Of a stretch of DNA of 42,985 nucleotides, positions 39,001 through 42,000 are shown in pieces; positions within the stretch are counted from its first letter, which is position 1, and each line of letters opens with the position of its first letter. A program made the position numbers. The stretch is from positions 1 to 42,985 of the IMG/VR virus record IMGVR_UViG_2671180458_000016; one strand, 5' to 3'. Origin of the DNA: a virus (lineage: Duplodnaviria > Heunggongvirae > Uroviricota > Caudoviricetes).

Positions 39001-42000
39001 TGGAACGAATAACCCTGAGTACATCGATGTCGGAGATGCCGGTATGACCAGAAAACCGTGGCGTGCGGGGAAGGATTTATCCACAGTTGTGGAGAACATG
39101 GAAATTGGCACCGGGCAGCGTGGTGACGGACGCCACGCATTTGTGACCCGTGAGGAACTGGTTGGTCTTAAACTCGCCCGGCGTCGAACATCGGGTGGTG
39201 CCTCATATGCACTGAATCCGGGTATTGAGATTGACAGTACTTTAATGACTGTTGATTTTCCCACAAAACCGCTGAATTTTAAGGCGACAGGAGGATTTGG
39301 CTCGGTTCTTCTTGAATGGGATATGCCTAATTATCGCGGACATTCACTGACTGAAATCTGGCGGGGTACGGAGGATGACCTTGCTGATGCAGTGCTGGTT
39401 GCCACGACGCCGGGGCAGGTTTACGGCGATCCGGTTGACCCTGGCTGGTCGGGATTTTACTGGATACGTTTTGTTAACGCGGCAGGAGTGAAAGGTCCAT
39501 GGAATGCTGAAAAAGGCACTCAGGCACAAACACAGATCGGCGTGAAGGCCATCATTGACCAGATCCGCGATGAGGCTGCAAAGTCGCCGGTTGTGTCCGA
39601 GCTGCGTAAAGAAATAAAAAACGCGCAGGGGCAGGCTGTAAAGGATGCTGCAATTAAGACAACCGAAGTTGTGGGGACTCTCAGGGAAGAAACGACAAGA
39701 ACGATTGGTGGTATTGAAACCCGCATTAGCACACTGGATTCGTCAACCAGTGAATCGCTTAATGAGGTCGACAAGCGCATCACTAAACTGGATAAAGAAG
39801 GCGGTGAGGCGTTTCTGGCAATGTGGTCAAAAAAAGCGGGAGTTGATGGTATCACTGCGGGGATCGGGATTGTCGCCGGAAAAGACAGTGAAGGCAGGCC
39901 TGTAAGTCAGGTTGCAATTTCTGCGTCGCAGTTGTTTGTCTTTGACCCGAACAACCCGGATAACACCGCCTATCCGTTTGCGGTATCAGGTGGCAAGGTT
40001 GTGATCCCGAAAGCGATGATTTATGACGCGGTGATTGAAACACTGGTGTCGCGGAAGGTTGTGGCGGATGAAGTAAAGGCCGGGGTAAGTATCACTTCAC
40101 CAGTTATCCGGAGTGCCGTTATTCAGAACGGAAATTTTCAGGTTGAGTCCGATGGCAGCATAAAAAGCGGGGAACATTTCAGCGTTTCAGTGAATGGAGA
40201 TGTGACGGCCAGTAATGCGAAGATAAGTGGTCATATTGATGCGGATTCCGGCACGCTGAATAACGTGATGATTGAAGAAAACTGCATCATTAAGGGAACA
40301 ATGAGTGCGGACAGAATCATCGGAGATATCGTCAAGGGATATTCCTTCGAACCTCATGATGGCACGCTCCATATTACGAACCACAAGTATGGAGAGGGTT
40401 ATGTCATCTTTAAGGCGGAGGTATCTCTTGCTGATGATGTTTCGTTTGATCGCAAGTTGATACTCCTTCCCTTCACTTTCTATTCAGGAACACTGACGAT
40501 AGAGATTAACGGAAGAGTTGTCATTAAGGCAGACCCAAGAGTTGCTAATACGGGAACGGCTGGTTATTTTGACAGATACGACAATCCTGTTTACACGCGC
40601 ACCAACCTCGGGAACACCGTTTCAGGAGTATGGGATGTGGCGGCAGGAGGGGGAGATACACGGATTACAGTGACAATGAGAGTTGAAGGTGGTCCTGGCA
40701 ATATGGGGGATGTGGAAGGGAGAAAGAGAGAACTGGTGCGATGGAGATATGACGCCTTTACTCTCATGGTGGCGAAATCGACAGATTCCGGTTTTACCCG
40801 GATATCGTGACAGGCAGTTGTAATACGGATTGCCGGAAGGAGACAAAAACCGTACAGTATGCGTGGGTGCCTTTCGGCTGATGGCTGGAGGGTGAACCTG
40901 AAGGCCTGATGTGGAAAGGCCCCGAGTCAACTTTAACGTTAACCCGAGGCCCTGACCGTACAACCTTCACAAGTAGTAGGTTAGCGCCTCTCCATTCAGG
41001 AGACAAGCGTTATGTCGCAAAAATCGCTCATCACCGTCACAATTTGCATGACGGTTATCTTCACCATCTGGATGTTGCACGGTTCACTGTGTGAGTTCCG
41101 GCTGAATTTGTGGGGAGCGGAGTTTGCGGCGTTCTTACAGTGTAAGCAGTAGGAAAACCGCGACGGGGACGAAAGTCCCCGTCAACTGGTTGCTGAGGTT
41201 CAGCCGATATGGCACCCGTTTGTAGTGTATGTTTTATACAATGCAGGCTGACAGAGAGAGGTAATATTTATCAATGGTAAATAATAACTACAGAAAATGT
41301 TTTGTTTTTTCTGAGTAATACTGGTGTTATTTAGGGTAAGTTTTTGATGCGTATTGCATCCTTGTGATTTTAATTATTAATTTTTCTTAACTCATTGATT
41401 TTAATATTTTATTTTCCTTGTTATTGTGAGTAGTATCCCTGAAGACATTTGCGTTCCGAATGTCAACATACTTATAACATGATTTAACATAAGGGTACAC
41501 ATCATGAAAAAGGCAAGCAAGCTATTGTTGGCTTTAATGCCAGCATTAAGCCTGTCATTATTTTCTGCTGGAGCGTATGCCAGTGGTTATTCCGTTACAC
41601 CTGAAACTCTGAATAGTAATTCAATGACTTCTGCGGAATTTTTGAAAGGTATCGGTGTATATCCAAAAGAGGGAGGGGCTCCTTTAATTAAGCTTGTTGA
41701 TGGTAAGGTTACTCCTCTTAACGGGAATACACCAACCTCATTAAATATAGACGCTGTTTCCGGTAAATATTTGAAATATACCTTAATTGATTATGGTAAG
41801 GCTGGCCTGACAGATACCGAGTTAGTTGCTCCAAGGGGAGACATCGTCTCATATTATGATTACGCGAATGAGACAGCTTATTTTGTAAACACAAAAACCA
41901 ATCAAATTCTGTTTAGTGCAGATGGCGAAGGAGTTGTCTCGACAGTAGGCGCTGATGGAAAAACATATTCAAGACATATTCCTGAAATTAGTGAATATAT

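Follow-up and report, generated by a model that had tools for sequence, protein, structure and literature searches.

Does the region behind the J-like tail fibre gene of this prophage hold a second hok locus, and if so, is it built like the classical hok/mok/sok systems and is it new? The 42,985-nt stretch of phage DNA analysed here (the window) had been interpreted, without database searches, as carrying at this place an unannotated hok/mok-type toxin locus in addition to a first hok locus, and we refer to this interpretation as the sequence-only reading. Our analysis makes it very probable that a complete type I cassette of toxin and antitoxin, of the hok/sok type, lies here, belonging to the cluster 72 Hok subfamily and carried as prophage cargo. 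The second hok locus as such is already known and ordinary rather than new, as follows from its RefSeq annotation and from a preprint on the toxicity of an identical peptide.

The proposed 46-aa ORF was found on the plus strand at exactly 41012-41152 (46 aa plus stop, MSQKSLITVTICMTVIFTIWMLHGSLCEFRLNLWGAEFAAFLQCKQ) and, on the evidence of its sequence, it is a real Hok/Gef gene for a Hok-type membrane toxin. The peptide scores 33.2 bits against Pfam PF01848 (HOK_GEF; E 4e-8, gathering score 22), with residues 8-44 aligned on positions 6-42 of the 42-position profile. In a logo of 1264 Hok peptides the conserved positions are C16, T18, L30, C31, E32 and E41 (bioRxiv 10.1101/2025.08.07.668861). 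The signature residues of the second-locus peptide, and with them the conserved core claimed earlier, are in place as C12 and T14 in the hydrophobic N-terminal helix, L26-C27-E28, and E37 nine residues on, and these positions are kept in the homolog alignment too. The good ribosome binding site noted before is the AGGAG at 40998-41002, 9 nt 5′ of the ATG. Purifying selection acts on this frame, pN/pS being 0.36 compared with 0.87 and 1.52 in the other two; none of the 18 homologs has a premature stop, and every indel among them in the coding sequence is a multiple of three. An ORF scan of the whole window returned only two Hok-scoring ORFs.

RefSeq holds the second-locus peptide as WP_000078907.1, which PGAP names “Hok/Gef family protein,” so the description of the locus as unannotated holds only for the ORF track behind the sequence-only reading and for old phage records, such as those of VT2-Sakai and 933W. 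The same protein, with zero difference, is peptide 72_1589 of Hok cluster 72, which was cloned as pAZ3::72_1589 (LRP157) for an arabinose-induced toxicity assay (Escalera-Maurer et al., bioRxiv 10.1101/2025.08.07.668861). The 3 non-toxic constructs of 45 assayed do not include 72_1589, and the peptide is thereby reported to be toxic when expressed. The preprint (10.1101/2025.08.07.668861) treats coding sequences only, leaving Mok, Sok and mRNA structure aside, and the RNA anatomy described below is additional to it.

Of 5426 complete E. coli genomes, 1550 carry the locus, as do 198 phage records. It is cargo of the archetypal Shiga-toxin phages and of many P2-like prophages, and conservation of the unit extends over E. 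coli, Salmonella, E. albertii, and Citrobacter. The alignment-based locus search gave seven species-level loci, some of which represent enterobacterial contamination (Xanthomonas, Planococcaceae, and Vagococcus assemblies). Matches at ~16.5 kb of several chromosomes were considered as the hokC neighbourhood and rejected, the annotation showing assemblies that begin at Stx-type prophages. The presence of two hok loci in one prophage had been called unusual, and among hok-carrying phages overall only 3.5% have two (bioRxiv 10.1101/2025.08.07.668861), yet it is the normal state in the present lineage, since 933W and VT2-Sakai each carry hokW plus the second locus. The second locus is mentioned neither in the Sp5 morphogenesis paper (PMC5155283) nor, as a part of Sp5, in the study of hokW-sokW in Sakai prophage 5 (PMC8621323).

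What surrounds the toxin gene is an RNA unit with conserved and covarying structure. The BLAST homology of diverged copies begins at 40865 and stops at 41217, which are the limits of the predicted full-length hok mRNA (plus strand, 353 nt, the 3′ end being approximate). The minimum free energy of this RNA is -149.7 kcal/mol (z = -4.99 against shuffles). Its helices were recovered by RNAalifold from 18 sequences, with covariation judged against shuffle and slide controls: the consensus structure of the unit is 97.4% paired, compared with 36-43% in slid controls, and the alignment holds 10 pairs changed on both sides, a number that is 3.8 +/- 1.4 in shuffles and is reached by none of 500. Just upstream, a candidate hok promoter occupies 40830-40858 of the plus strand, with a -35 TTGCCG (40830-40835), a 17-nt spacer, and a -10 TACAGT (40853-40858), followed after 6 nt by the conserved 5′ GGGUGCC. 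Hexamers of equal position and spacing occur in 17 of the 19 sequences (TTGCCG or TTGCCC, then TAGATT, TAAATT, or TAGAAT); none were found in S. diarizonae, and one further sequence is N-masked. With 8 of 12 consensus matches the hok promoter stays below the threshold of the sigma-70 scanner, which at 9/12 reported no promoter at the second hok locus, for the candidate of either strand, and both promoters are proposed instead from positional conservation and homology to sokW.

The ends of the unit are predicted to pair with each other. RNAalifold recovered de novo a fold-back (fbi) pairing of 13 pairs between a 5′ arm at 40865-40879, which is also the tac-like 5′ end (GGGUGCC 40865-40871, UCGGCU 40874-40879), and a 3′ arm at 41202-41217 (AGCCGA 41202-41207, GGCACCC 41211-41217), both on the plus strand. 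The heptamer helix is 100% paired in the 18 sequences and the hexamer helix 94%, the latter with 2 compensatory pairs, and between 40801 and 41400 only the GGCACCC complements the 5′ heptamer exactly. The hok Shine-Dalgarno sequence falls into a sequestering hairpin at 40982-41012 (plus strand; CUCU 40988-40991 with GGAG 40999-41002, outer stem 40982-40987/41007-41012), whose helices 7 and 8 are 96-99% paired across homologs, and its probability of being unpaired in the full-length RNA is 0.00. Directly adjacent, a dcb-like long-range helix of 15 pairs (41013-41131, plus strand) joins the hok start region 41013-41029 to the 3′ coding region 41115-41131; it is 98.1% paired, with one compensatory change and six that affect one side only, and the AUG with the first codons is thus predicted to be paired in the full-length mRNA. 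Downstream of the hok stop, the strong hairpin of the sequence-only reading was recovered at 41162-41183 of the plus strand (GACGGGGAC-GAAA-GUCCCCGUC, arms 41162-41170/41175-41183). It was picked up by the terminator scan, 3 of its 9 pairs (helix 18) carry compensatory changes (e.g., AU:9/GC:9), and it probably forms the end that protects the processed mRNA.

When the RNA is ended at 41188 or 41195, the 5′ GGGUGCC is predicted to move onto GGCCCC at 40918-40923, its ucb-like partner inside the leader hairpin, and this thermodynamically predicted refolding reproduces helix 1 of the Rfam sok model RF01794. The tac/ucb pairing is without covariation support because its pairs are invariant. The leader hairpin itself, an RNAalifold helix at 40918-40951 of the plus strand (alignment columns 54-89) that makes up the putative Sok-target region, corresponds to helix 1 plus the target hairpin of the same model. 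RF01794 aligns over its full length (1-157) at 40865-41022 with 37.1 bits (E 9.7e-7 in a 651-nt search; gathering score 59), and the second-locus leader is not reported by a whole-window Rfam scan at the gathering threshold.

Opposite this leader, an antisense gene of the Sok type is predicted on the minus strand, complete with a promoter and a terminator hairpin. Its RNA would be ~57 nt long, with putative ends at 40970 and 40914, and would consist of a 5′ tail (GUGAAGGUUGUACGGUCA), a 16-bp hairpin and a UUUC tail. The hairpin belongs to the minus strand by its energy, which in the window is -26.9 kcal/mol on that strand and -12.2 on the plus strand; the minus-strand form is the stabler one in 18/18 homologs (-20.6 to -26.9 versus -11.9 to -16.3 kcal/mol, a gap of 6-15). 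Searches of the literature gave no transcript of the second-locus hok mRNA or Sok RNA; a transcriptome study of EHEC under ciprofloxacin names hokE alone. A search for the antisense promoter gave a candidate at 41006-40978 of the minus strand, composed of a -35 TTGTCT (41006-41001), a 17-nt spacer, and a -10 TAACCT (40983-40978). The -10 reads TAACCT in 18 of 19 sequences and TAATCT in the remaining one, while the -35 among homologs is TTGACT, TTGCCT, TTGCTC, or TTTACT at 17-18 nt from the -10, and the homologous site of the annotated sokW reads TTGCCT-17-TAACCT. Like the hok promoter, this candidate is weak by consensus and lies under the scanner threshold. The AGGTTAGC and CCTCT blocks, which had been described as common to the leaders of both loci, are indeed found in both, at 14088-14100 in the first, and the shared AGGTTAGC block corresponds, as it does in sokW, to the -10 (TAACCT) of the candidate antisense promoter. 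The whole layout of the predicted gene matches that of the annotated 71-nt sokW of phage 933W.

Translation of hok in plasmid R1 depends on mok, and the lack of a conserved mok in the second locus was counted against the hok/sok cassette reading, together with the two weak promoters, the Rfam score below gathering, the invariance of the tac/ucb pairs, and the literature searches that gave neither transcript. The sequence-only reading had assigned the role of mok to an upstream ORF at 40909-41094 (plus strand, 61 codons, with an SD-like GAAGG at 40900-40904), which is present and out of frame with hok as described, but is not conserved: of the 19 sequences compared (the window and 18 loci), just 3 have it reaching into hok. 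Were this ORF a functional mok, coupled to hok and directly targeted by Sok, the locus would be a canonical hok/mok/sok system, and it does overlap the hok start out of frame like the mok of R1, its ATG (40909) and GAAGG are kept in 17/19 sequences, and the long frame is also open in E. albertii and strain AZ153. Against this, copies 94-95% identical to the window, in VT2-Sakai, an O104:H4 prophage, ST866, and 933W, have an upstream ORF of 8 codons, truncated by a 1-nt deletion in the hairpin loop, most P2-type copies end after 17-25 codons and 27-48 nt before hok, homologs place it in each of the three possible frames with respect to hok, and the two most diverged loci have no ATG at all. The ORF frame is also the one with a pN/pS of 1.52 within hok, and its product has no Pfam match. 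Moreover, its ATG stands 5′ of the Sok-target hairpin, unlike the canonical mok position after GAGG 40946-40949; a start at the latter place was looked for and rejected, no ATG, GTG, or TTG lying at usable distance from this conserved motif in any homolog, and a TAG at 40982-40984, in frame and invariant, rules out an in-frame Mok of the MokW or MokC type. A canonical system appears unlikely to us on these grounds, and given the overlap in 3/19, the varying frame and the missing canonical start, we file the locus as hok/sok-type without a conserved mok rather than as hok/mok/sok. Coupling through an overlapping mok ORF, unlike in plasmid R1, is probably not part of the second-locus mechanism.

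The missing mok could also mean that the locus is a silenced or decaying relic, in which the hok ORF is intact yet never translated natively since mok coupling was lost, and in which the RNA elements only reflect recent descent. Weak promoters would fit this picture, as would the inactivation of K-12 chromosomal hok loci, e.g., by IS150 beside hokA/mokA. It is nevertheless quite improbable in the face of purifying selection on Hok down to ~73% DNA identity and in several genera, RNA helices maintained by compensatory changes, units that are intact in all copies sampled from 17 different genomic records, and a peptide reported as toxic upon expression. That the ORF is a chance product of an intergenic spacer, with hairpins that are fortuitous as well, has only its small size in its favour; this view is refuted by the family match, the conservation and the covariation, and its probability is close to nil.

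The paradigm for such systems is hok/mok/sok (parB) of plasmid R1, with an inert, fbi-locked mRNA, 3′ processing, tac/ucb refolding, and the cis-antisense RNA Sok. The preferred reading as a hok/sok cassette has the same working outline, as predicted from the sequence. A weak constitutive promoter at 40830-40858 would yield an mRNA of ~353 nt from 40865 to ~41217, and this full-length form would be translationally inert because its 5′ end is locked to the 3′ end and the hok SD and AUG are buried. Slow 3′ trimming to the stable hairpin 41162-41183 would take off the fold-back arm, upon which the freed 5′ end may re-pair with GGCCCC 40918-40923 and the leader refold to a form open to translation and to antisense RNA binding. 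The Sok-like RNA of the minus strand (~40970 to 40914), short and unstable, would pair with this leader, the mRNA being silent or degraded as long as Sok is made. Once antisense synthesis stops or its level drops, through loss of the element or, as has been reported for hokW, upon induction of the prophage, the 46-aa Hok would be made and enter the inner membrane, leading to depolarisation or cell death. Unlike R1, the second locus has a 46-aa toxin, no conserved overlapping mok, and a prophage instead of a plasmid as its carrier.

Among chromosomal relatives, K-12 hokA (cluster 93) resembles the second-locus Hok in its N-terminal M-x-QK and C-terminal AAFL-x-CK motifs, and cluster 72 adjoins the HokA-like sequences in the alignment of the preprint, although the two clusters are separate at its 60% identity threshold (10.1101/2025.08.07.668861). 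The K-12 copy of hokA is disrupted by IS150 and its mokA is a pseudogene.

Closer at hand is the first hok locus of the window (13961-14347, plus strand; RF01794 103.2 bits), which is of the hokW/mokW/sokW type, 92% identical to that of 933W, and has a Hok-like 51-aa ORF within a 70-aa in-frame Mok ORF at 14073-14285. The second locus shares with hokW/mokW/sokW of 933W and Sakai prophage 5 (Takada et al., 2021, PMC8621323) the GGGUGC 5′ end/GCACCC 3′ pairing, the antisense promoter TTGnCT-17-TAACCT, the long antisense hairpin with a U-tail, and the 3′ stem-loop. The toxins are only distant relatives (mutual searches E 4e-8 and 2e-5), and the systems differ in that hokW has a 70-aa in-frame Mok while the second locus has no conserved one, in the Rfam sok score (103 bits for the hokW-type first locus, 37 for the second), and in genomic position, hokW lying in the early/nin region and the second locus at the end of the late region after lom or a tail fibre. 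The two antisense RNAs have unrelated 5′ tails, so that cross-regulation between the loci seems unlikely. RNAduplex energies, taken as a crude indicator and not as a test of cross-talk, were -49 and -52 kcal/mol for the non-cognate Sok/hok pairs and -121 and -137 for the cognate ones.

As a discovery the locus is minor, the gene being annotated and widespread and the peptide catalogued and assayed, and the remaining interest lies in a second module overlooked in the Sp5 hokW-sokW work and in a subfamily without a canonical mok. We tentatively suggest that cluster-72 hok is a mok-less hok/sok variant, controlled by RNA refolding and antisense or by a short leader ORF ending before hok, and that in Stx phages of the Sp5/933W type it is redundant with hokW-sokW at induction. 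Deletion of hokW-sokW in Sakai prophage 5 roughly halves phage release (PMC8621323), and redundancy of the second module, if true, would explain why release is merely halved. The lack of a conserved mok also makes the subfamily a convenient case from nature for asking whether hok systems must have mok coupling. Finally, since the sok model misses the cluster-72 subfamily at its gathering threshold, Rfam-based surveys undercount hok/sok in Stx phages.

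The hok-type unit at 40865-41217 (+), here called locus 2, is a genuine hok/sok-type type I toxin-antitoxin module without a conserved mok. Its toxin ORF (41012-41152, +), supported by ORF calling and Pfam, encodes the 46-aa peptide MSQKSLITVTICMTVIFTIWMLHGSLCEFRLNLWGAEFAAFLQCKQ; a ribosome-binding site, AGGAG, can be read 9 nt 5′ of the ATG on the same strand, and a GC-rich hairpin (41162-41183, +) found in the sequence and by terminator scan follows it, all as the sequence-only reading had described. The peptide does belong to the Hok family as then proposed, scoring 33.2 bits on Pfam HOK_GEF (gathering score 22), and the hits of a database search form a coherent subfamily, 46-aa “Hok/Gef family” proteins of E. 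coli, Shigella, and Salmonella that are 59-98% identical. Across 18 homologous loci, pN/pS of the hok frame is 0.36 with no stop codons, while in the two non-hok frames it is 0.87 and 1.52 and stops occur; in the homolog alignment the leader has 1-nt indels and those of the coding sequence are all multiples of three. A six-frame profile scan of the window revealed exactly two Hok-like ORFs, 41012-41152 and 14133-14285.

Opposite the leader lies a candidate antisense promoter on the minus strand, with a -35 element TTGTCT (41006-41001) and, after a 17-nt spacer, a -10 element TAACCT (40983-40978), both recognized by conservation and by homology to sokW. At the homologous position, the annotated sokW of phage 933W carries TTGCCT-17-TAACCT; it starts 7 nt past its -10 and shares the tail-hairpin-U layout of locus 2, in which a 16-bp hairpin and then a UUUC tail lie 3′ of the minus-strand -10. 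TAACCT is kept in 18 of 19 sequences (the window and its 18 homologs), and the -35 of VT2-Sakai-type copies is TTGACT. In all 18 homologs the minus-strand form of the antisense hairpin exceeds the plus-strand form in stability by 6-15 kcal/mol, because its G-U pairs become C-A mismatches in the mRNA, and this asymmetry points to selection acting on a putative antisense transcript. The blocks AGGTTAGC and CCTCT, earlier noticed in both hok loci, are indeed common to the locus 2 leader and to the first locus (14088-14100); the former is the antisense -10 and the latter the strand pairing with the hok Shine-Dalgarno (SD) sequence.

In BLAST comparisons with diverged copies, homology starts at 40865 and ends at 41217. 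The 5′ end of the unit, GGGUGCC, finds its sole exact complement within 40801-41400 at GGCACCC (41211-41217), and this fold-back is lengthened by a second helix (40874-40879 with 41202-41207). RNAalifold on an alignment of 18 sequences recovered the fold-back de novo, together with the 3′ hairpin, a hairpin in which CUCU (40988-40991) binds the hok SD GGAG (40999-41002), and a long-range helix of 15 bp that joins the hok start region (41013-41029) to the 3′ coding region (41115-41131). In this consensus 97.4% of cells are paired, compared to 36-43% with partners slid by 1-3 columns, and 10 pairs, two in the fold-back and three in the 3′ hairpin, show both-sided changes, compared to 3.8 ± 1.4 in shuffles (0/500). 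The full-length RNA of the window folds at -149.7 kcal/mol (z = -4.99). When the 3′ arm is removed in silico, a switch is predicted in which the 5′ GGGUGCC would shift onto GGCCCC (40918-40923), a pairing that is helix 1 of the Rfam model, and the leader hairpin would open. The Rfam sok model (RF01794) aligns end to end at 40865-41022 with 37.1 bits, under the gathering score of 59; the gathering threshold thus misses this Hok subfamily, and a default scan of an Stx phage lists one of its two hok/sok loci.

It had also been proposed that a mok-like ORF overlaps hok out of frame. Such an ORF is called at 40909-41094 (+, 61 codons), but it is not conserved, since just 3 of 19 sequences (the window, E. 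albertii, and strain AZ153) have it open as far as hok, and its 61-aa product has no match in Pfam. The ATG at 40909 with its upstream GAAGG is kept in 17 of 19 sequences; the ORF is 8 codons long in ST866, O104:H4, and VT2-Sakai, as it is in the 933W leader sequence, and in the remaining copies, mainly P2-type, it ends after 17-25 codons, 27-48 nt 5′ of hok. Depending on the copy, it lies in any of the three frames relative to hok. Neither the window nor the homologs have a start codon where a canonical mok would begin, 3′ of GAGG (40946-40949), and a MokW-type in-frame Mok is excluded by an invariant in-frame TAG (40982-40984). Given the early stops, the shifting frame, the lack of a canonical start, and this TAG, the mok-like ORF is a lineage-specific accident of frame, at most a variable leader ORF and not a conserved component.

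Locus 2 is already known, being in RefSeq and catalogued by a systematic survey in which its peptide was tested. The claim that it is unannotated has to be withdrawn, as E. coli 2012EL-2448 (NZ_CP027586) matches the window at 100% identity and its PGAP annotation labels the hok ORF as Hok/Gef family protein (WP_000078907.1). Older GenBank records carry the gene without annotation, as in VT2-Sakai (AP000363.1/NC_000902.1, ~44531-44910, in the lom-orf66 gap) and 933W (AF125520.1, 45511-45865, between lom and L0129), both with a peptide identical to that of the window. The peptide is also identical to 72_1589 of plasmid LRP157 (Table S2 of the survey of Hok homologs, bioRxiv 10.1101/2025.08.07.668861); according to that preprint, 42 of 45 tested homologs were toxic, and the three non-toxic ones named there do not include 72_1589. 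Mok, Sok, and mRNA structure lie outside its analysis (10.1101/2025.08.07.668861).

Of 5426 complete E. coli genomes, 1550 carry DNA resembling 40840-41240, at up to 7 places per genome, and so do 198 phage records. Two contexts are found: short-tailed Stx phages (VT2-Sakai, 933W, phi24B, and the O104:H4 phage) have it 3′ of lom, and P2-like prophages, phage P88 among them, have it at their right end, immediately 3′ of ogr. E. coli/Salmonella-type copies with 76-100% peptide identity in a Xanthomonas pisi contig, a Planococcaceae MAG, and Vagococcus sp. most likely reflect contamination of those assemblies.

The first hok locus of the window (locus 1, 13961-14347, +) scores 103 bits with RF01794 and shares 92% identity with hokW/mokW/sokW of 933W, a system studied experimentally in Sakai prophage 5 (Sp5) with no mention of a second hok (PMC8621323). 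Two hok loci in one prophage had been regarded as unusual, which holds for phages in general, as two copies were found in 3.5% of hok-encoding phages (10.1101/2025.08.07.668861), but not for the archetypal Stx2 phages, since VT2-Sakai and 933W both carry the pair; so do PA36, PA52, ST2-8624, and Stx2a_WGPS9. The hokW-sokW studies in Stx phages have overlooked a second Hok module of the same phage. The predicted antisense RNAs of the two loci have unrelated 5′ tails, from which we infer that the two modules are probably independent of each other. In Sp5, mitomycin C lowers sokW and raises HokW, and the hokW locus approximately doubles phage release (PMC8621323); by analogy, a similar role for locus 2 is plausible, and our literature search found no transcript-level evidence for this locus.

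Directly 5′ of locus 2 in the window is a tail-tip fibre gene (39044-40810, +), intact with 588 aa (PF09327), which RefSeq gives as a pseudogene “missing C-terminus” spanning only to window position 40207; its final ~200 residues seem to form a different C-terminal domain. Between fibre and hok, VT2-Sakai and 933W have lom and two small ORFs; the window lacks these, and the hok cassette therefore is at a recombination junction. Directly 3′ of the module, past a ~280-bp AT-rich spacer, lies one of two YadA-like trimeric autotransporter genes of the late region (41504-42700, +; 398 aa, YadA anchor 44.9 bits plus head repeat); the other (35389-36510, +) encodes 373 aa with an anchor of 59.1 bits, and both may be Eib-type prophage adhesins. 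Immediately 3′ of locus 1, a 707-aa N6-adenine DNA methyltransferase-like protein (14460-16583, +; PF02384, 75.6 bits) bears three tandem PATSDQR repeats at its N-terminus. Finally, the sRNA family STnc100 (RF02076) is matched over its full length at 18090-18296 (+, 166.9 bits), just 5′ of a 645-aa ORF (18510-20447), the counterpart of the SASA-family esterase gene 3′ of stx in VT2-Sakai.
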